Assembly: GCA_943788175.1 (NCBI GenBank)
Contig: CALSPG010000007.1
Span: 128,001 to 192,000, forward strand
Origin: an uncultured bacterium
GTDB lineage: Bacteria; Fidelibacterota; Marinisomatia; Marinisomatales; UBA1611
Reading direction: 5' to 3'
DNA length: 64,000 nt
The position numbers and the translations under genes were made by a program. Under the pieces are notes generated by a model. The model saw only the letters and a program-made list of their open reading frames with translations, had not been told where the DNA came from and ran no database searches. Below, piece after piece: positions 1,499-55,531 of the stretch (position 1 is the stretch's first letter; every line of letters starts with the position of its first letter).

Positions 1499-2113
1499 TT
1501 ATTTTAATCTGAAGTTTACTGGGATTGATATCCAAACACCGACTGCTCTTTCTCTTTGCTTTGCGGGTCTAAATCTTGTCTTTCTTATTGCGTCCATTGC
1601 GGCTTCATCTAGTCCTGTGTTCGGTATTCCTTTTAAAATTATTGTCTCTTTTACTCGTCCTCTATCATCTATAAAAGCCTGCACAACAACAACGCCTTCA
1701 ATACCTGCTTCTTGTGCTATCTCAGGGTATATTGGCCTTATTGCACTTATAGGCTTTGGCGGATCGTCATAAGGAATAAACTTTACTTTAGGTCCGCTAG
1801 GAGCTGGAGGAGCATCCCAAGCTTCAAAATCATCAAAATCTAAATCATCCAATGTCACATCATCTGCAATATCTTCATCGTCTGTAGGAACAGGGATTGA
1901 TGGTCTAGCTGGAGGCGGAGTATTATCGATTTGTTGTGTCTGTGGGATGTCTATATTTTCAATGGAAATTTGTTCTACGTTTCCAAACTCCGATTTAGAA
2001 ATAAACCTAGGAAATATTAAAAACATAAAAACTAGACTAAATATTCCACAAAGACCAGCGACTCTTACTACGATAGGGTATTTGCCTTTAAGTGGGTTTG
2101 TATTCAGCTTCAT
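1499..2113 (-). CDS. tonB: Energy transducer TonB
   Basis: N-terminal TM helix, Pro/acidic linker, TonB C-terminal domain YPEIAQEAGIEGVVVVQAFID...RFRPAKQ...IPVNFRL. Confidence 0.9.
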   Translation of the reverse strand: MKLNTNPLKGKYPIVVRVAGLCGIFSLVFMFLIFPRFISKSEFGNVEQISIENIDIPQTQQIDNTPPPARPSIPVPTDDEDIADDVTLDDLDFDDFEAWDAPPAPSGPKVKFIPYDDPPKPISAIRPIYPEIAQEAGIEGVVVVQAFIDDRGRVKETIILKGIPNTGLDEAAMDAIRKTRFRPAKQRERAVGVWISIPVNFRLK

Positions 2114-2523
2114 TAACGAACGAGTGTTTTTGTAGAGTAGTTAAGTTTTAAAGCATCAGCTTCGCGTAATTCTTCATGAATAGATGATATAAGTTCCATT
2201 TTTGCCTCTTCATCAGCTTTTAACGATACAATTAGCTGTGGGTCGGAGACCCTTTTTTCATACATTATTTTTGCTACATCTTGAACGGCAAACAACCTAT
2301 CGTTTATTGAAACTAATCCTTCTTTAGATATCCAAATATGAGCAGTATGTCGTTTCCCTTTTAATTTTTCGATTTTTTCTGCTTTTGGAATATTTACGGG
2401 TAAACCAGAGTACTCACGCAAAACGGTTGTTACCATAAAAAATATTAGAAGCATGAAAATAATATCAGGCATTGAAGAAGTTGGTATCTCACTTGAGATT
2501 TTTGTTTTTCTTGAAAAATTCAT
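2113..2523 (-). CDS. exbD: Biopolymer transport protein ExbD/TolR
   Basis: SSMPDIIFMLLIFFMV TM motif with the conserved Asp; LKAD motif. Confidence 0.9.
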   Translation of the reverse strand: MNFSRKTKISSEIPTSSMPDIIFMLLIFFMVTTVLREYSGLPVNIPKAEKIEKLKGKRHTAHIWISKEGLVSINDRLFAVQDVAKIMYEKRVSDPQLIVSLKADEEAKMELISSIHEELREADALKLNYSTKTLVR

Positions 2524-2921
2524 TAGTTCGAGTTAGCTATAGATATCTTTTTTGCATTAGCAATTTTTAGTTGGTCAAGAACGCGTATATAATCGCTGTA
2601 GTCTGTTTTTGGATGTGCTTTAACCGAAACAATTAATAGCGGATTTTTTGCTAATCTTTTTTTAACTATTCTTCCAATTTGTTCAACGTTGGTAGGTTCT
2701 TCATCAAGGAGAACTTTACCCTGAGAGTTAATTAGGCAGTTTATTATATTCTTTTTTTGAATTTCGATTTCTACATCGCCTGCTGGAGGTAGGACTATTC
2801 CAAGACCTTTATCAGTGTCTATTGTAGTTGTAACTAGGAAAAAAACGAGTAACAAAAAGGCAATGTCTGCCATAGAACCCGTTGGGATTTCCCCACCCTT
2901 AAATCGACGATTTCTAATCAT
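2523..2921 (-). CDS. exbD: Biopolymer transport protein ExbD/TolR (second copy)
   Basis: GSMADIAFLLLVFFLVTTT TM motif. Confidence 0.9.
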   Translation of the reverse strand: MIRNRRFKGGEIPTGSMADIAFLLLVFFLVTTTIDTDKGLGIVLPPAGDVEIEIQKKNIINCLINSQGKVLLDEEPTNVEQIGRIVKKRLAKNPLLIVSVKAHPKTDYSDYIRVLDQLKIANAKKISIANSN

Positions 2922-2931
2922 TTAATAAGAA

Positions 2932-3537
2932 TTATTTTGTGTTCTGTAGGTACTCAACAATCTTAATGGACTGTTCTTCCATATCTAAAATAAGCTTATC
3001 AATCATGGATACAAAAAAGTTTTGAGAAACTTGCATTATCATCGCAACAATTAATCCAAAGGCAGTAGTCAAAAGCGCTTGGGATATACCTCCTGCAACT
3101 ACTGCTGGAGAGATATCATTCGCCATTTTAATATCTTCAAATGCTTTAATCATTCCAACAACTGTTCCGGTAAATCCAAGCATTGGAGCAATGGTTATAA
3201 CAGAATTAATCCAGATCATGTTTTTCTCAAGAAATGCCATTTCAAGCCCACCAGCATTTTGGACAGCTTTTTCGATTTCTTCTTTTTGTTTACCCATTTT
3301 AGATAGGCCCGCGTAAAATATAGATGCAACAGGACCTGGTGCGCTTTCACAAAACTCTATTGCTTTTTCCTTACCAGAATCATCGTATGTCGTTTTTACA
3401 TCTTCAAAAAACTTATCAGTATCAGAACTTGAGTTAATTAGTGAATATGCTCTCTCGCCAACTACAGCAAGTCCAAAGAGTAGTGCGATGAGAATTGGCC
3501 ACATAAAACCACCACCTTGTACAAAAAAATCAACCAT
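2932..3537 (-). CDS. exbB: MotA/TolQ/ExbB proton channel protein
   Basis: IAPMLGFTGTVVGMI and GGISQALLTTAFGLIVA motifs; GGAGG RBS upstream. Confidence 0.92.
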   Translation of the reverse strand: MVDFFVQGGGFMWPILIALLFGLAVVGERAYSLINSSSDTDKFFEDVKTTYDDSGKEKAIEFCESAPGPVASIFYAGLSKMGKQKEEIEKAVQNAGGLEMAFLEKNMIWINSVITIAPMLGFTGTVVGMIKAFEDIKMANDISPAVVAGGISQALLTTAFGLIVAMIMQVSQNFFVSMIDKLILDMEEQSIKIVEYLQNTK

Positions 3538-3616
3538 GTAATACCTCCATTAATTATGAAACAATTTATTTTTTAAAAATCTATATAAGCAATTTAATTT
3601 ATAAACAGCTTATAAT

Positions 3617-5233
3617 TTAATTACGGTAACCCAAGAAAGCATCAGCTTCGTTAAAATATTTTAACGCTTCCGAAACTTGGTTATCTAGAAAAAGCCTGAT
3701 GCTCGCTGACTCATCTTTTCCCCAGATGGTACCAGCAATTTCACTTTTAATTCTATTATGTATGAAAGATTGATCAACTAGAAGAGAATCAGAATTAAAT
3801 GAAATCGAATCATTTTCTAAATAATCCAAAAATTGTGAATATATAGATTGGTTTACGTTCCAGGTTTTTTTAAAGTTTTTAAAATCCTTGTAACCTAAAT
3901 CGTTCTGGTTAGCATATGTTGAAGAAAAATTAAAAATAGGTCTTTCTGGGTTCCTTAAAAGTTTTTGAGTCGTTTTTGTTAATTTATTTTTGTAAGGAAC
4001 ATATTTATCGGGGGTTATTCCACCTCCACCATAAACAGTTCGTCCCTGTCTAGTCTGATATTTTGGTCTTAGTTTTTTTAAACTATCTAAAACAGACTCT
4101 CTATCGTTCGCATATAGTTCTTTGTAATATGTTAAGTCATGACCCTCTTCATAAGGGCGTTGTATTAGTCTCCCGCTAGGAGTAAAATATCTTGCCATTG
4201 TTATTCTTATTGCGGCACCGCCTTCCAAAGGGAGCTGTCTCTGAACTAATCCTTTCCCAAAACTAGTTTCTCCAATTATTAGTCCTCTATCAAGATCCTG
4301 GACTGCTCCAGAAACGATTTCACTAGCACTAGCGGAACCTCTGTTTATTAAGACAATTAAAGAAAAATCATTTCGTCCTTTCTGAGGGTCTGAAATAAAT
4401 GCTTGGTTTGAATCTGATATTTTCCCTTTAGTATAAACTAAAGTATCCCTTGTGGAAATAAACAAGTTAGAAACTGCTGCAGCTTGCTCCAGATACCCAC
4501 CACTATTACCCCGAAGATCAAATACTAGCTTTTTAAAATTTTGCTTATCCAATTTATCTATAGCTTTATTTACTTCATCAATAGTCGTTGCTGAAAACCT
4601 TCTCAATAATATGTATCCAGTTTCTTCATCGAGCATAGTGGCAGCCCCTACGCTGTATATTGGGATGTCATCTCTAATAATCGTAACATCAAAAGGTTCC
4701 TCAAGTCCTATGCGCTGAATAGTTATGTCTACTTTAGTGCCTTTCTTACCTCTTAGTTTTTTAACAACTTCATCTTTTGTTATTTTGTATGCATCATCCC
4801 CATTTATAGCAATAATTTTATCTCCAGATTGAAGACCTGCATAATCAGAAGGGCTGTCAGGGACTGGTGATATTACTGTTATATAGCCATGGAGTATATC
4901 AAATTCAATTCCTATTCCTTGAAAATTCCCTCTAAATAATTCGTCAATGTTTTCTTGATCTTTCGCTGGTATATAGGTTGAATGAGGATCTAATTCTTCC
5001 ATTAATCCATGGAATGCACCATCCATAATTTTATCCATGTCGACATCATCAAAATAAAAATGATCAACGTAAGAAATGATTTGTTGCATGACCATTATCT
5101 TATCTTTTAGGACTCTGTAGATGTTTTTATTTTTTGAATAAGCCTCTGGCATAAAAATTAATATTGCAAAAACGAAGCCAAATAGTGCAGATGTCACCAT
5201 AGGCCAGAGACGAGTGACTTTTTTTTCGGACAT
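3617..5233 (-). CDS. ctpA: Carboxyl-terminal processing protease (S41A, PDZ domain)
   Basis: LDPHSTY, GIGI (PDZ), DLRGNSGG, SASASEIVSGAVQD, SFGKGLVQ, RYFTPSGR. Confidence 0.92.
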   Translation of the reverse strand: MSEKKVTRLWPMVTSALFGFVFAILIFMPEAYSKNKNIYRVLKDKIMVMQQIISYVDHFYFDDVDMDKIMDGAFHGLMEELDPHSTYIPAKDQENIDELFRGNFQGIGIEFDILHGYITVISPVPDSPSDYAGLQSGDKIIAINGDDAYKITKDEVVKKLRGKKGTKVDITIQRIGLEEPFDVTIIRDDIPIYSVGAATMLDEETGYILLRRFSATTIDEVNKAIDKLDKQNFKKLVFDLRGNSGGYLEQAAAVSNLFISTRDTLVYTKGKISDSNQAFISDPQKGRNDFSLIVLINRGSASASEIVSGAVQDLDRGLIIGETSFGKGLVQRQLPLEGGAAIRITMARYFTPSGRLIQRPYEEGHDLTYYKELYANDRESVLDSLKKLRPKYQTRQGRTVYGGGGITPDKYVPYKNKLTKTTQKLLRNPERPIFNFSSTYANQNDLGYKDFKNFKKTWNVNQSIYSQFLDYLENDSISFNSDSLLVDQSFIHNRIKSEIAGTIWGKDESASIRLFLDNQVSEALKYFNEADAFLGYRN

Positions 5234-48633: not shown

Positions 48634-50436
48634 TTAACTTTTAAAAAACGTTTTTCTTCGAGTGTTTATTTTACTTTCAAGTTCAACAATTTTTTCTTTT
48701 TCTATTGTGGTCTGATCTTCTTTTGATTTTAGCTTATCTAGCTCTAGTCTTAAAAATTGAACATCCCGCTCAAGTTTTTCGAGTCTACCTTTCATTTGCT
48801 TAGATAAAACCTTCTTAAAATCATCTATTTTATCACTATCTGGTGTATAGTATATATTTGTATTTCCCCGATCCGTATCTTCCCAGAATGTAGGTCCGCT
48901 GAATCTAATTCTGTTATAAAGACCTTCCATAAGTTTAAGATATGTTTGATTATCAAAAAATGCTAAATCATCAAGGACATCAGAAACGATTGTTTCAGCA
49001 AAATTTATATTATTAATTTTTATAAAATGTAAAGCAAGCCCAATTTGTAAAACTCTTACTCCGTTGTTTACGCTTTGATCTAGCTCTTCTTTTGAATAGT
49101 CTGGCGGGTTATCAAGCTGTAAAATTTCTTTTAACAGGTGTTCTTGAAGTTGATTATCCCAAGTTTCTTCCGATATTAAAATAGTAATCTTTTTTAGTTC
49201 AGCTGTTAGCACATCTACAATGAAATATAATGAAGGGTTTTTAGCGGCCTGTTTATAAATCTCATTACTGTAGAACTTAAAATAAAAATAGCCCTGTTTT
49301 AATAAGTCCTCTTTATTATGATCAACATATCCTTTTAAAAGCGCAGAATAATGGAAGGCAAGGTTGTATAAATTTCTAGGTTCATTATTACGGACAGCGT
49401 GTTTAATAGCAAATCGCATAAATGTATTAAACCTTATGTTAATATCAACTATCAAGCTATTTTGTTTTAAATCTAAGGCTAGTAACCCAATTGATGAGAC
49501 TTCACTTGCGATTAGAGATGCGAGCTCATATTCTCCGTTTTCCATTTTTCGGATATAAGCATTACCCATCATTTTAAATGCTTTAACTTCGTAAAAGGTT
49601 CTTCTGTCTTCTAAATCTTTATATTGATGTTCAACATATGTTCGGAAAGTGGGATTATTTCTAATTGTGTCTGTGGCAGCAAAAAAACGAGAGTCATAAA
49701 AACTTTTATTTCGCATGTATACTCTTACGGTGTCACCAACTCTACGTATTATTTCAGTTTGTGCTTCTTTAAAAGAAATGTATTCTAATAAATCATCAAA
49801 CTGATCAATAGTAGACATCAATTGATATTGGTAGTGTTCAATATTTTTAATATTGTCCATTGATAAGTGTACAGATTTATTTTTCAACCTATTTATATCT
49901 TCAATATTTAGTGTGTATAATTTTTTGATTACATTGTCTGTTTTAGAGTAGAGGAGTATATAAAAAATATAAGGTAGCGATAGCATAGATGAAGCTGGCA
50001 GATAAACGTATGTATTTAGCATCACGCTGGATAGCCTTTCCATAGGTCCGAAATAATACATTATCACTGTAGCGTGAATTGATGCTAAAATTAAAAACCA
50101 AATAAAAATAAGACTTACCCAATCTTTAACAAATAAATCCATCAGTTTAGGAGTAGACTCAGCTGCAATTGCTATTACAATGATTAAGGTACCTAGCACT
50201 GTGGCTAAAACTCCGCCCCAAATTTCTGGTGCAAAGGTGAGGTCTATTGCATCGTGGGTTTCTTTGCCTAAACCAAATAAGTTTTCTAAGAGGGATATAA
50301 TATCAGAGTAAAAATAATGAAACGTGAAGTCGCTGCCAAGGACTACGAAAAAAACGAAAAAGAGAGAGGCTAATGATCTATTTTTATTAATTAGCCCCAA
50401 AATTTTACTAAATAATATGGTCAGTTTGTCATTCAT
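48634..50436 (-). CDS. Hypothetical membrane protein (about 4 N-terminal TM helices and a large helical soluble domain), possibly DUF2254-like
   Basis: 600-aa ORF with a hydrophobic N-terminal third; FWEDTDRG near the C-terminus; family call is tentative. Confidence 0.55.
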   Translation of the reverse strand: MNDKLTILFSKILGLINKNRSLASLFFVFFVVLGSDFTFHYFYSDIISLLENLFGLGKETHDAIDLTFAPEIWGGVLATVLGTLIIVIAIAAESTPKLMDLFVKDWVSLIFIWFLILASIHATVIMYYFGPMERLSSVMLNTYVYLPASSMLSLPYIFYILLYSKTDNVIKKLYTLNIEDINRLKNKSVHLSMDNIKNIEHYQYQLMSTIDQFDDLLEYISFKEAQTEIIRRVGDTVRVYMRNKSFYDSRFFAATDTIRNNPTFRTYVEHQYKDLEDRRTFYEVKAFKMMGNAYIRKMENGEYELASLIASEVSSIGLLALDLKQNSLIVDINIRFNTFMRFAIKHAVRNNEPRNLYNLAFHYSALLKGYVDHNKEDLLKQGYFYFKFYSNEIYKQAAKNPSLYFIVDVLTAELKKITILISEETWDNQLQEHLLKEILQLDNPPDYSKEELDQSVNNGVRVLQIGLALHFIKINNINFAETIVSDVLDDLAFFDNQTYLKLMEGLYNRIRFSGPTFWEDTDRGNTNIYYTPDSDKIDDFKKVLSKQMKGRLEKLERDVQFLRLELDKLKSKEDQTTIEKEKIVELESKINTRRKTFFKS

Positions 50437-51199: not shown

Positions 51200-51352
51200 A
51201 TGTCGGAAAAAAGAACGCACAGTGACGATAGAAGAAATGATAATAGAAGATTAGAGGATCGCAGGAAAGAATCCATGTCAGTAGAAGAAGAGAGAAGAGA
51301 GAGTAATAGAAGAGCTGACGAACGCCGGTCTAGAGAAGAGCGACGCTCGTAA
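51200..51352 (+). CDS. Small 50-aa (D/E/N)RR-repeat protein, not in the supplied ORF track
   Basis: Hand translation: MSEKRTHSDDRRNDNRRLEDRRKESMSVEEERRESNRRADERRSREERRS*; AAGG upstream; fills an otherwise empty spacer. Confidence 0.7.
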   Translation: MSEKRTHSDDRRNDNRRLEDRRKESMSVEEERRESNRRADERRSREERRS

Positions 51353-51367
51353 CAACTTAATTCCCTT

Positions 51368-52042
51368 TTAGCAGTATACTCTTTCCATACCAGATAAAAA
51401 GTTATTTAGCGAAGATAAAGCTAAATCAATAGATTCTAGAGCTTCTTCTTTTTTCAAATCAGTATCACAAACCTCACCCAACAATTCTTTAATTATTTGT
51501 CTATGAATAATATCAGCAGACTTGTGCACTTCAAAAAACTTTAGTGTTTCATCGCCTTCTACTGCGCCATAATATCTTTTTAATCCATCAATTTTATTTT
51601 CAGCTATTTCAGGTATCATAGACTCATAGCAATAAAGCGCACTAAACCCTTTATGATACTTCTCGTCTTTCGATAATTTCATAAAATTAGTTACTAGCTC
51701 TTCAGTCTCTTTGATAGCAGTGGTCTTTTTTACGCTATCCCTATCTTTGCCCATGCCTTCAGCAAAACGCATCCATAATTCAGGATGGTTTTCTTCACCA
51801 CGTTCTTCATCAATAAGATTTTCAAGAATCTCTTGTCTTACATTAATATTATCACAATTTGAATGAATTGATGATAGGTATCTTGGGAAGGCAGCTACAT
51901 GCTTAAAATATTGAGCTGCATATTCTTGGATCACAGATTTTTTTAATTCTCCAGCATTCCAGGCCTTATAGAATGAATGATTAAGCAGGTGATGTTTTTC
52001 AATTTTTCTTTCAATCGTATTTAGAAAGTCAGATTTGTTCAT
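51368..52042 (-). CDS. CADD/CT610-family heme-oxygenase-like dimetal oxidase (putative self-sacrificing pABA synthase)
   Basis: HLLNHSFY.AW..GEL, EYA.QY, FPRYLS.IHS.C, NLIDEE...NH..LW, YE..IP.IA..KI.GL, FF.VH..AD..H. Confidence 0.88.
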   Translation of the reverse strand: MNKSDFLNTIERKIEKHHLLNHSFYKAWNAGELKKSVIQEYAAQYFKHVAAFPRYLSSIHSNCDNINVRQEILENLIDEERGEENHPELWMRFAEGMGKDRDSVKKTTAIKETEELVTNFMKLSKDEKYHKGFSALYCYESMIPEIAENKIDGLKRYYGAVEGDETLKFFEVHKSADIIHRQIIKELLGEVCDTDLKKEEALESIDLALSSLNNFLSGMERVYC

Positions 52043-52075
52043 AGTTTAATTTACTCCGAAGTTTAGTTTATTGAT

Positions 52076-53356
52076 TTAACCAAGCCATATTCCGGCACAG
52101 AAAAATAACCCCGTTAAGAAGTGTAATCCAATAGTTCCTGCATTAGCTGGTTGTAATAATCTGTTATCATAATGTTTGTAGAGGGTTTTTATTGTGAAAA
52201 TACTGTATACAGATGTTATTAGTGAAATTAGTGATAGTGTAGGAAATGTAGTTGGTCTTGTCCAAGCTAAAGCTATGATGCTAACAAATGCACCAACAAC
52301 AAGTGCGACATAGCCTATTCTAGCTTTTTCTGGTCCAAAAACTACTACCAGATTATTTTTCCCTGTTGCTTTATCACCATCATGATCTGGGAATTGATTT
52401 ACAAAAACGATTGCTGCAACTAAAAGTCCAATCGGAATTCCAGCAAGAATAGCATCGTTTATGTGTATCATTTCTCCGCCAGTCTGGACTAAAAAACTCC
52501 CTGCAACCATTAATGGTCCAAAGTTTAGCCCAATCAATAGCTCGCCCAGACCTTTTCGTGATGCAAATCGGAATGGTGGTGCAGTATAAAAGAAACCTGA
52601 TAAAAATCCAATTATTCCTAAGTAAAGAATGCTAATCCCAGCTTTATATATAAGTGGTATTCCTATTAAGGCACTAAGAGCAAATGTTACTATAGCAACG
52701 TTCAGCATGCCTTTGGGTGTTATCAGACCCATTTGAATGCTTCTGCTTCCACCAGAAAACGGAATCATATAATTATAGTTTGCTTCATCAGTACCACTAA
52801 TATGATCATAATAGTCATTAGATGTATTGGTACCAATATGTAGAAAAAACCCTCCTAACATTGTCAGTGTAAAATAAAACCAATCAATATCTACGAATTT
52901 ACTTGCGACTGCAGCTCCTAATAATATGGGAACGATAGTTGCTGTCAAAAATGGTAACCTCATTATTACCATCCAACTAAATAGTTTTGTTGCAAAACTT
53001 ATTTTTGGTCGAACATCCGCTGGCGTTTTATCATGAAGAGGAGATGTGACACCGCAATATCCAATATGGTTTCCACCACTGTCTTTTGTTGGCGTTATTT
53101 TTATTTTACATGGCATTTCATGACCATCTTTGTGTAGAAAAACTGTGTTTCCTTCCCAGGCGCCTTTTTCAACTGATTCAGCTAACCAATTTACAACATG
53201 ACCCAAAACTATTTGACCAGCACTAAAATCACTAACGCGGCCTTTACCAATTATTTCATCTTCTGTGTATCCGAACATATCTTGTGCGCCAGAACTAAAT
53301 GTCTCAATTTTTCCATCTAAATCACACGTGATTACACTTTTTAAATTTTTACTCAT
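52076..53356 (-). CDS. menA: MenA-family (DHNA) prenyltransferase with an N-terminal PAS domain
   Basis: Residues 1-105 PAS-like (DLDGKI..FS.GA..MFGY...EIIGK...HKDG); then RLPFL, NDYYD..SGTD, GGSR, YTAPP...GLGE, NQFPD..GD..TGK. Confidence 0.82.
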   Translation of the reverse strand: MSKNLKSVITCDLDGKIETFSSGAQDMFGYTEDEIIGKGRVSDFSAGQIVLGHVVNWLAESVEKGAWEGNTVFLHKDGHEMPCKIKITPTKDSGGNHIGYCGVTSPLHDKTPADVRPKISFATKLFSWMVIMRLPFLTATIVPILLGAAVASKFVDIDWFYFTLTMLGGFFLHIGTNTSNDYYDHISGTDEANYNYMIPFSGGSRSIQMGLITPKGMLNVAIVTFALSALIGIPLIYKAGISILYLGIIGFLSGFFYTAPPFRFASRKGLGELLIGLNFGPLMVAGSFLVQTGGEMIHINDAILAGIPIGLLVAAIVFVNQFPDHDGDKATGKNNLVVVFGPEKARIGYVALVVGAFVSIIALAWTRPTTFPTLSLISLITSVYSIFTIKTLYKHYDNRLLQPANAGTIGLHFLTGLFFCAGIWLG

Positions 53357-53444
53357 ATCTTAACTATTCCTTCTATTATACGAATTTATAATAATATAAA
53401 TTTAGCTATCATAAATTTCTAAGAACGAAACAAATTTTAAAAAA

Positions 53445-54752
53445 ATGGGCACACCTGCAAAAAAAATAGCTTTTCATACATTGGGATGTAAGCTCAATTT
53501 TTCTGAAACCTCTTCTCTATCCAGAGACTCCTTAAGATATGGTTATGAGAATGTAAATTCAAAAGAATTTGCAGATATATATGTTTTCAACACTTGTTCT
53601 GTAACAGAAAATGCAAATAAGGAAACAAAAAAATTAATAAGAAGAAGTAAACGCATTAACCCTAAGGCTTTCATTGCTTTGATAGGGTGTTATGCCCAAT
53701 TAAAGCCAGAAGAACTAATAAATATTGATGATGTAAATATGGTTTTAGGTACTGCTGAAAAATTTGAGTTATTAAATCATTTAGACAAAGTAAAGATTTC
53801 AAATGATATAAAGGTTGTAATGAATAAAGATATAACTGAGATTAACTCATTCAATCCTTCGTTCTCGGGAGATGACAGAACTAGGGCTTTTTTAAAAGTT
53901 CAAGATGGCTGTGATTATAGCTGTACGTTTTGTACAATTCCTATGGCTAGAGGAAAAAGTAGAAGCGCTTCAATCAGCCAAACAGTTAATCTTGCAAAGA
54001 CAATAACAAAATCTAAAACAAAAGAAATAGTTCTTACTGGAGTAAACATAGGAGATTTTGGTGTATATAATAATGAATCATTTTTTGAACTAATAAAAGA
54101 AATAGATTTACAAGTAGACATCGATAGAGTTCGAATTTCATCTATTGAGCCAAACCTACTGTCAAATGGAATAATTGAATTTTGTTTTAATTCAGAAAAA
54201 TTTATGCCACATTTTCATATTCCACTGCAATCAGGATCAGATAAAATTCTTAAATCAATGAAGAGAAGATATAAAGTTGAAGACTTTAAAAGCCGTATTA
54301 ATACAATTAAAAATTTAGATAGTGATGCCTGCATAGGCGTAGATGTAATTGTTGGTTACCCATCAGAAACTGAAGAAGATTTTATCGAAACATATGAGTT
54401 TTTAAAAAATCAAGATGTTTCTTATTTACATGTTTTCACCTATTCTGAAAGAGAAAATACTAAAGCCATAGATTTTAAACCTGCAGTACCTTTTAAAGAA
54501 AGATTTAACAGATCTAAATTATTACGTGAGCTTTCAGATCAAAAAAAAGCTCAATTTTATAAAAAATCGGTTGGGGATATTAGGCCCTTACTTGTTGAAA
54601 ATAATAAAAATGGTATCTTATTTGGATATACTGATAACTATGTAAAAATAAAGATTAATGCAGCAAGTTCTATTGAAAACACTATTCAAATGGTAAATAT
54701 TTTAGATTTTAGAGGAGAATACATGTTTGGTGAAATTATAGCCGCAGGTTAA
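53445..54752 (+). CDS. mtaB: tRNA t6A37 methylthiotransferase
   Basis: HTLGCKLNFSE, NTCSVT, GCYAQ, KVQDGCDYSCTFC radical SAM motif, RISSIEP, HVFTYSER. Confidence 0.92.
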   Translation: MGTPAKKIAFHTLGCKLNFSETSSLSRDSLRYGYENVNSKEFADIYVFNTCSVTENANKETKKLIRRSKRINPKAFIALIGCYAQLKPEELINIDDVNMVLGTAEKFELLNHLDKVKISNDIKVVMNKDITEINSFNPSFSGDDRTRAFLKVQDGCDYSCTFCTIPMARGKSRSASISQTVNLAKTITKSKTKEIVLTGVNIGDFGVYNNESFFELIKEIDLQVDIDRVRISSIEPNLLSNGIIEFCFNSEKFMPHFHIPLQSGSDKILKSMKRRYKVEDFKSRINTIKNLDSDACIGVDVIVGYPSETEEDFIETYEFLKNQDVSYLHVFTYSERENTKAIDFKPAVPFKERFNRSKLLRELSDQKKAQFYKKSVGDIRPLLVENNKNGILFGYTDNYVKIKINAASSIENTIQMVNILDFRGEYMFGEIIAAG

Positions 54753-55531
54753 TTTTTTTCAATTTCAGATAAAATTTCATTCCAGAACTTAATTCTGGAT
54801 TTCATTACATCTTTACCACATTTAATGCATTCCTTCCATTTTATTTCATCATCCCCGCAAATCTCTTTAATCATCTTTAATGCTAATGGTGTATGCTCAT
54901 CTTCGTCTAAACCAATGTGCCTATCCAAGTAGTAGATAAATGACTTAAGGTTTGCACTAGAATTATTATTTAAATCAGAGACTAATTCTCGAAACATATC
55001 AGGAATTATTTCCTCCCTACCCAAAGTAAAAATTGTTGCTGTTAAGTGGGGTAAACCTGATTCTATATATTTAAAAGTATCTAGAACAAAATTTTCAGCT
55101 GGTTTAGGTGCATTGGAAGTTATCAAAGAAGAGTGTACACCCTTAGAATCAAGTCCTTTTAAAAAGTTTTCTATGCTTGTTGTATTTGCACCGGCTTCTT
55201 TCATAGCATGATAATATATTTCAAAATGACTTAGGTGTTGTCCATAACGATCAATATCTGATTCCTCTGCAAGAACTATTTCATTTAATAGCCTTGATAA
55301 GTTGCCATTACTTTTCGGTCTCCAAGGTATTTCTATGCAGGTAAATTCTCTTTGAAGTGATTTAAGCACTGACATAAAGTCCCACACAGCGTAAACATGA
55401 TTTTGCATAAAAATGTGTAAGTGTTTTTCTGTTTTTATAGCACTATATAAAGGGTGCGTTTTTAGTGCAGTTCTTTCTTGTTGGGTTTCATCAAGAATGT
55501 TTAACAGATTGTTTTTCAGTAGTCTGAACAT
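54749..55531 (-). CDS. DUF3050 family heme-oxygenase-like protein
   Basis: HPLY, FM.NHVYAVWDFMS, NEIVLAEESD, SHFE.Y, GRE..IP.MF, YLDRHI.LD...H. Confidence 0.85.
   Translation of the reverse strand: MFRLLKNNLLNILDETQQERTALKTHPLYSAIKTEKHLHIFMQNHVYAVWDFMSVLKSLQREFTCIEIPWRPKSNGNLSRLLNEIVLAEESDIDRYGQHLSHFEIYYHAMKEAGANTTSIENFLKGLDSKGVHSSLITSNAPKPAENFVLDTFKYIESGLPHLTATIFTLGREEIIPDMFRELVSDLNNNSSANLKSFIYYLDRHIGLDEDEHTPLALKMIKEICGDDEIKWKECIKCGKDVMKSRIKFWNEILSEIEKN

Follow-up and report, generated by a model that had tools for sequence, protein, structure and literature searches.

Why would a PAS domain be joined to a membrane prenyltransferase, and what would such a protein make? The question is raised by one gene in a stretch of 64,000 nucleotides (the window; contig CALSPG010000007.1, positions 128,001 to 192,000) from an uncultured Marinisomatales bacterium of the SAR406/Marinimicrobia group. 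The gene encodes an N-terminal PAS domain and a MenA-like membrane domain of the UbiA superfamily. A sequence-only reading had described the product as a MenA-type enzyme carrying a PAS sensor domain with a FixL-like histidine, whose prenylation activity would respond to O2, redox state or a ligand. The parts of the gene are as follows.

52076..53356, minus strand: whole open reading frame of 426 residues with PAS domain, linker and MenA-like UbiA membrane domain; ATG start, TAA stop, uninterrupted.
53039..53338, minus strand: PAS domain, residues 7-106; Pfam PAS_9, AlphaFold2 model, Foldseek and VIA match to 3lyx.
53321..53326, minus strand: Cys11-Asp12, PAS residues kept family-wide; Cys in 49/52 and Asp in 51/52 proteins.
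53312-53314, minus strand: Gly15 of the PAS domain; 52/52 PAS-UbiA proteins.
53198..53200, minus strand: His53 on helix F-alpha, the candidate haem ligand of the sequence-only reading; 26/27 close and 9/25 distant fusions.
53054..53134, minus strand: stretch with His75, Cys83, His97 and Cys101; each 27/27 in the close clade.
52958..53038, minus strand: residues 107-133, linker with a juxtamembrane helix; secondary structure by DSSP on the full-length model.
52079..52957, minus strand: UbiA-superfamily membrane domain, residues 134-426, nine long helices; Pfam UbiA and model.
52787..52828, minus strand: first Asp-rich motif NTSNDYYDHISGTD, residues 177-190; alignment of relatives.
52742..52756, minus strand: SGGSR, residues 201-205, predicted cytoplasmic lid loop; clade comparison.
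52373..52399, minus strand: second Asp-rich motif NQFPDHDGD, residues 320-328; alignment of relatives.

Both domains were recognised by profile and by model. PAS_9 matched residues 7-101 at 44.6 bits (cut-off 27), and a second Pfam model, PAS, matched the same open reading frame at 25.1 bits (cut-off 22.6). The UbiA family (PF01040) was matched over residues 141-394 with 110.2 bits against a gathering score of 34.2. An AlphaFold model of residues 1-125 from 33 aligned sequences had a mean predicted local distance difference test score (pLDDT) of 85.7. Its PAS order of strands and helices ends at residue 106, which agrees with the PAS domain of about 105 residues (about 53042-53356) that had been proposed within the single reading frame. 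The full-length model (54 sequences; pLDDT 93.9, predicted template modelling score, pTM, 0.89) has nine long helices between residues 134 and 425. N177, N180, D184, D190, N320, D324 and D328 were invariant across the 54 aligned relatives. D181 was invariant in an alignment of 22 and kept in at least 90% of the alignment of 54. The basic linker residues R116, K118 and K123 precede the first membrane helix. The earlier claim of a complete MenA/UbiA domain held for the UbiA match and both Asp-rich motifs. It did not hold for the MenA label, as set out below.

The fusion was then followed in other sequence collections. PAS_9 and UbiA occurred together in 120/120 near-relative clusters among the matches listed, at 81-99% identity and from many contigs and sources. 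In a library clustered at 50% identity, an alignment running from PAS through the end of UbiA was obtained for 21 of 150 listed representatives, at identities down to 32%. Among species-level genomes, the PAS-UbiA fusion was found in 36 of 80 kept loci; 34 of them include the PAS part, and two are cut by a contig end. Eighteen of these 36 loci are titled Marinimicrobia or Neomarinimicrobiota, and three stand under other labels. Near-identical DNA was present in runs of 13 studies and in six metatranscriptome runs. A single RNA-library contig of 2,511 nucleotides spans positions 51300-53450 in one piece, with seven substitutions and no indels. In two RNA runs (X17 and X19) parts of the locus had no cover, from which nothing is concluded. 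Therefore, the fusion is neither a misassembly nor a chance event. The survey of its spread that the sequence-only reading had called for thus removes the suspicion, raised there, of an assembly artefact. Several PAS-plus-UbiA clusters of 53-140 members in the Atlas are a lead only. One PAS-UbiA library protein of 551 residues (P0127) carries about 120 extra N-terminal residues that resemble an EF-hand pair by eye. A literature search for PAS-MenA or PAS-UbiA prenyltransferase fusions found no paper, in line with the earlier remark that no characterised PAS-MenA fusion was known. Searches for Marinimicrobia with menaquinone, and for SAR406 with quinone and respiratory chain, found nothing relevant, as judged partly by title and abstract.

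To which family does the membrane domain belong? By its sequence, the protein is a PAS domain joined to a UbiA-superfamily prenyltransferase whose nearest named family is MenA. It is not demonstrable as MenA on these grounds, and the label is loose. MenA (TIGR00751 and PRK06080 models) is the best-scoring named family, and the membrane domain of the fusion protein matches it in length and in its build of nine helices. The Asp-rich motifs and further catalytic residues are also common to the fusion protein and to the MenA encoded in men operons (N177, N180, D181, D184, D190, R205, N320, D324, D328 and K333). However, all NCBIfam MenA equivalogs stayed under their cut-offs (TIGR00751 at 100.8 against 102.15 bits, NF004751 at 159.3 against 264, the rest lower). 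Identity to the men-operon MenA of close relatives is 27-31%, as determined by tblastn with men operons. The lid loop is different as well. It reads GGSR in the protein's own clade where men-operon MenA reads GPxR; residue 203 is Gly in 31/31 own-clade rows versus Pro in 20/20 men-operon MenA. A clade-specific insert of 6-7 residues precedes SGGSR, and residue 185 is His in 29/31 own-clade rows versus Phe in 16/20 men-operon MenA. In addition, the fusion protein differs from MenA in its N-terminal PAS domain, in its place in a sister clade, and in a genome without MenG and without synthesis of 1,4-dihydroxy-2-naphthoate (DHNA). The MenA identity given earlier was not sustained, since the equivalog scores, the sister clade and the missing DHNA pathway all speak against it.

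The best sequence match among solved structures was UBIAD1 (8djk, E 1.2e-11 over residues 121-425; also 8djm). UBIAD1 is the animal menadiol prenyltransferase; it requires reduced menadiol, its head group is not built by the cell, and no C-methylation follows. Such chemistry would suit a genome without MenB and MenG. However, UBIAD1 is distantly related and lacks a PAS domain, and an equivalence of substrates is a conjecture.

The draft genome that carries the window (G000, 92% complete) also encodes COX1 (446.7 bits) and NuoH (380.8 bits). With complex I and a haem-copper oxidase, the bacterium needs a quinone. Three UbiA-family matches were found in this genome. One is the fusion gene, the second is haem o synthase (286.9 bits, cut-off 210.3), and the third is a geranylgeranylglyceryl phosphate (GGGP)-type prenyltransferase. 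Because the other two are assigned otherwise, the fusion gene is the only quinone-type prenyltransferase candidate of the genome. The third paralogue, which is like GGGP or digeranylgeranylglyceryl phosphate (DGGGP) synthase, lies at 1435-2274 on the plus strand of locus L002 (contig C5 of G000) and matched NF009523 at 204.1 bits, under the cut-off of 269. It follows directly after a HemK/PrmC-like methyltransferase open reading frame and resembles an archaeal-type ether-lipid prenyltransferase in a bacterium.

The known head-group pathways were searched for in the same genome. Profile searches left MenB at 156.6 bits (cut-off 342.7), MenD at 53.3 (cut-off 244.2) and MenG/UbiE at 53.1 (cut-off 158.35), and MqnA/D (PF02621) had no match there. 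Three MenB-positive relatives supplied men operons as tblastn queries against the genome, and these returned only crotonases of 34-35% identity and the fusion gene itself. A crotonase beside an enolase-family gene on contig C2 was considered as a hidden divergent men operon; these genes are actually DgcA/DgcN and a short-chain enoyl-CoA hydratase. UbiD and UbiX were found in 0/5 own-clade genomes tested, with G000 lacking both. A benzoquinone- or futalosine-type route with UbiD/UbiX decarboxylation is rejected on the basis of these five genomes.

The pattern was compared across the phylum in a sample of 121 genomes, 97 of which had a match to the protein. MenB was over its cut-off in 47/121 genomes, MqnA/D in 7 and MenG/UbiE in 75. 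Full-length matches to the fusion were confined to G000, G067 (68% identity) and G055 (45%), and MenG/UbiE was below cut-off in all three. In MenB-positive genomes the homologue, of about 30% identity, stands alone and lies next to menB. A tree was made from 61 UbiA domains of 59 of the 97 matching genomes; the unused rows came mostly from MenB-positive genomes of one genus. In this tree, the 20 men-operon MenA proteins, all from MenB-positive genomes, form one clade that excludes the fusion protein, with a support of 99 in the Shimodaira-Hasegawa-like approximate likelihood ratio test (SH-aLRT). The fusion protein falls in a clade of 31 rows (support 88) nested in a 35-row sister clade (support 94) to men-operon MenA. 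All 31 rows come from genomes without MenB over cut-off or a PF02621 match.

The N-termini within this 31-row clade are diverse. Three proteins carry PAS, 19 carry another N-extension of 148-186 residues, and nine carry none. PNPOx_N was over cut-off in 3/5 tested clade proteins with the extension. Among ten further library proteins, one was over cut-off for a PNPOx-like domain, two matched weakly, and seven were without a family. Judged from these sequences, PAS is an accessory module, whose place can be taken in evolution by a PNPOx-like domain or be left empty. In G083 and G099, MenG/UbiE starts 4-5 nucleotides after the PNPOx-fused gene, which ties the clade to quinone synthesis. The two loci (L062 of G083, 1989-4245; L061 of G099, 1933-4263) run from the PNPOx-like and MenA-like fusion through MenG/UbiE to CarA. 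G083 has a second, very divergent UbiA gene 4 kb downstream, and in G099 a type II dehydroquinase (by eye) divergently adjoins the locus.

Stand-alone relatives of 40-52% identity (L106-L149) were found in Gemmatimonadota, Chloroflexota, Elusimicrobiota, KSB1, Archaeoglobus, Bathyarchaeota and many metagenome-assembled genomes of Thorarchaeota/Promethearchaeota. In five genomes with stand-alone relatives of 43-47% identity (Gemmatimonadota, Thorarchaeota, Archaeoglobus, Chloroflexota and Elusimicrobiota), MenB was over cut-off in 0/5 and PF02621 was matched in 0/5. A count of PAS gains and losses on a FastTree of 194 rows gave nine changes, with 20/24 PAS rows in one 60-row clade. This count was not used, because the nearest "stand-alone" rows (P0128, P0129) look like partial gene calls.

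The PAS domain was examined in 52 true PAS-UbiA proteins, 27 close and 25 distant; incomplete loci and loci containing X were dropped. Its mean identity to the query was 82% versus 77% for UbiA in 26 close proteins, and 39% versus 39% in the 25 distant ones. PAS is as strongly conserved as the enzyme domain. Family-wide residues are C11 (49/52), D12 (51/52), G15 (52/52), R40 (48/52), F44 (47/52) and W57 (47/52). The sequence-only reading had placed His53 16 residues after Gly37 and cysteines at 11, 83 and 101, and these positions are correct. Cys11 is the sole family-wide cysteine of the three, and Cys83 is restricted to the close clade. His53 itself is kept in 26/27 close versus 9/25 distant proteins, so a FixL-like histidine is not a feature of the family. 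H75, C83, H97 and C101 are each present in 27/27 of the close clade; most distant fusions have A83 (20/25) and Q97 (13/25). A clade-specific metal or haem site formed by H53, H75, C83, H97 and C101 is possible in the sub-clade of the window.

The FixL chains of the PDB align only over residues 8-38/39 (E 0.024-0.9), and the NCBIfam FixL model NF041777 gave 13 bits over residues 8-38 only. No sequence similarity to FixL over the haem pocket, from F-alpha to G-beta, appeared in either comparison. The likeness of FSSGAQDMFGY to FixL, which had been pointed out earlier, is real but generic, being limited to this N-terminal part. Together with the distribution of His53, the end of FixL similarity at residue 38/39 means that the FixL analogy is not a family property. 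On sequence grounds, the PAS domain does not descend from haem oxygen sensors of the FixL type. As in FixL and EcDOS (DosP), there is a PAS fold with a histidine on F-alpha at near-equal spacing from a conserved glycine; unlike them, the fusion has a membrane enzyme as its output and not a kinase or phosphodiesterase.

In structure, as in the PAS_9 score, the N-terminus behaves as a PAS domain. The nearest solved structure is the PAS of Colwellia CPS_1291 (3lyx; sequence E 3.9e-6), with a Foldseek template modelling (TM) score of about 0.8 and a root-mean-square deviation (rmsd) of 1.4, and a VIA-align Z of 16.6 (107 residues aligned, rmsd 1.7). This domain belongs to a GGDEF signalling protein; we know of no ligand assigned to it, and hence it gives no clue to the signal. 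NifL PAS1 (2gj3), Aer (8dik), MmoS (3ewk) and LOV, which are flavin or redox PAS sensors, are among the top structural neighbours at Z 14-15, with LOV, NifL and Aer at about 14; AHR and ARNT are neighbours as well. Many PAS classes lie within 1-2 Z units, so that no ligand is singled out. The haem PAS of DosP stands at Foldseek rank 31 among nearly tied classes. FixL was not among the 50 matches listed by Foldseek or VIA-align, from which nothing is concluded because the PAS classes are nearly tied there. Unlike flavin PAS and LOV domains, the fusion has its conserved cysteine on strand A-beta and not at the LOV position, where the sequence reads GKGRVSDFSAG; no flavin-binding motif was recognised on reading the sequence.

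Taken as a whole, we lean, by a little, towards a quinone prenyltransferase with an orphan substrate that bears an accessory regulatory PAS domain, in an aerobic bacterium of the SAR406/Marinimicrobia group. The PAS, predicted to be cytoplasmic, would be linked through about 27 residues to the first helix of the nine-helix MenA-like domain. It would lie on the same membrane face as the Asp-rich active site and the lid loop. The known membrane topology of UbiA-family structures places the Asp-rich site on the cytoplasmic side, and the PAS is put on that side because of this topology and the basic residues before helix 1. The enzyme would most likely prenylate a head group of the naphthoquinol type or a related one, giving it a polyprenyl tail. 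This head group would be salvaged or made by an undescribed route, since the clade occurs in genomes with neither known route and has a differing lid loop. The product would be the respiratory quinone; as MenG is missing, it would be either unmethylated or pre-methylated. Control of prenyl transfer is, in our view, the most likely role of the PAS domain, which may respond to a small redox-active or aromatic ligand. The form we prefer is quinone-pool feedback that acts via the family-wide Cys11 or via a ligand bound to the domain, similar to PAS sensing of the ArcB type. The PAS cysteines of ArcB sense the quinone pool, and a family-wide PAS cysteine on a quinone-pathway enzyme likewise invites the idea of a thiol switch.

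Several points weigh against this explanation. TIGR00751 was missed by only 1.35 bits, and an ordinary MenA activity on salvaged DHNA is thus fully possible. The absence of the pathways rests on draft genomes, though the same pattern is seen at 96-99% completeness. The tree came from a quick search with SH-aLRT support only and an unsure root. It is equally conceivable that the family-wide PAS residues form a surface for docking on the enzyme. Finally, a plain ligand pocket accounts less well for the invariant His/Cys set of the sub-clade than a metal or haem cofactor does.

The neighbouring genes were inspected for hints to the substrate. Directly downstream lies one gene of interest.

51368..52042, minus strand: CADD-family di-metal oxidase gene, 33 nucleotides downstream of the fusion on the same strand; TIGR04305.

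This gene matched TIGR04305 at 263.9 bits (cut-off 200) and is of the self-sacrificing p-aminobenzoate-synthase type. CADD is adjacent in 12/36 fusion loci, nine times downstream and three times directly upstream on the same strand; the share may be higher, as several loci end beside the fusion gene. The junction between CADD and UbiA is spanned by RNA-library contigs from three studies. A single transcript is not proven by contigs of this kind, but the two genes are probably co-transcribed. CADD was found in 14/121 phylum genomes; it is absent from G067 and G055 and present in the MenB-positive G115. An obligate pathway of CADD and prenyltransferase is ruled out by the low count and by the two fusion genomes without it. 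In our reading, CADD is a folate-related enzyme in its own right whose gene often lies near the fusion gene.

Elsewhere the upstream gene varies. A PF04199 "putative cyclase" of the kynurenine-formamidase family (253 residues) stands directly upstream on the same strand in L086, L091-L093, L095 and L098. These loci belong to one sub-lineage with LexA downstream, and the arylformamidase model gave 39 bits, far under its cut-off. A hotdog thioesterase, nearest to MenI and under its cut-off, is directly upstream in L076, L100 and G067 (by eye), and AroB-AroQ is directly upstream in L102. The changing neighbours of aromatic metabolism are a suggestive, not decisive, clue to the substrate.

Two more genes of the window were noted. 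A DUF3050 protein (54749-55531, minus strand; 308.7 bits) lies between GcvP and MtaB and is syntenic in six close loci; like CADD, it matches haem-oxygenase-like families weakly. At 48634-50436 on the minus strand there is a predicted membrane protein of 600 residues without a Pfam or NCBIfam match, whose synteny is kept in seven related loci (cluster 6).

How do other explanations compare? It is unlikely, in our estimate, that the PAS of the sub-clade binds haem or a metal through His53 with His75, Cys83, His97 and Cys101 and gates prenyl transfer by O2 or redox state. His53 does lie on helix F-alpha (helix 47/48-64 in the models), one residue beyond the spacing of FixL and EcDOS, and C83, H97 and C101 would face the pocket by their strand register. 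The near-invariance of all five residues in the close clade and the presence of DosP among the Foldseek matches point the same way. However, His53 is missing from 16/25 distant fusions that retain the rest of the PAS core, the alignments to FixL leave the haem pocket uncovered, and the best structural matches are non-haem PAS domains, albeit with scores nearly tied. A still smaller chance is given to the N-domain as a substrate-handling module, which would bind an aromatic head group or flavin and deliver a salvaged quinone or reduce it to the quinol, with the PNPOx-like domain acting likewise. The PNPOx-like split barrel that replaces PAS within the same clade is a flavin- or aromatic-binding fold, and structural neighbours of the PAS (NifL, Aer, MmoS, LOV, AHR) bind FAD, FMN or polycyclic aromatics. 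An imported, possibly oxidised precursor is plausible because these genomes do not synthesise the head group, and the need of UBIAD1 for reduced menadiol fits such a role. On the other hand, nine of the 31 clade members manage without any N-domain, so the module is dispensable for catalysis. The sequence also reads without a LOV-type motif, and we know of no precedent for a catalytic PAS reductase.

The PAS domain could instead be structural or serve oligomerisation without any signal input. Dimerisation is a common task of PAS domains, the sequence shows no recognisable cofactor motif, and the full-length model fixes the PAS confidently relative to the membrane domain. We consider this very improbable, because the PAS is conserved as well as the catalytic domain and its invariant polar C11, D12 and R40 go beyond the usual scaffold, while stand-alone members of the clade do without it. 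Little credence is likewise given to an enzyme that prenylates a non-respiratory aromatic made by whichever genes adjoin it, such as p-aminobenzoate where the neighbour is CADD. The two arrangements of CADD with bridged junctions, the PF04199 cyclase (six loci), the MenI-like thioesterase (two loci and G067) and AroB-AroQ would all suit it. However, the scattered distribution of CADD across the phylum does not, the tailoring enzymes UbiD and UbiX are absent, and G000 would be left with no quinone prenyltransferase despite its complex I and oxidase. Moreover, MenG/UbiE is operonic with the PNPOx form. A broader idea goes beyond the regulatory PAS that we prefer. The MenA-like clade might mark a third, undescribed way by which SAR406 and scattered phyla obtain a respiratory naphthoquinone or else some new quinone, with the N-domains and the aromatic-metabolism neighbours making, reducing or sensing the head group. 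We hold this as a tentative and rather unlikely extension.

In dark and oxygen-poor ocean waters, SAR406 ranks among the bacterial groups of highest abundance, and we know of no established route by which it synthesises its respiratory quinone. If the PAS regulates the enzyme, it would be a rare signal input built directly into a membrane lipid-cofactor enzyme and not one acting via transcription. A 2026 survey of bacterial quinones describes genomes with neither menaquinone (MK) pathway and states that cases like Gloeobacter "suggest the existence of an alternative MK pathway" (PMC13386864). For this question, the clade of the fusion offers a concrete and expressible handle in the form of one protein that is straightforward to assay and has natural domain variants.

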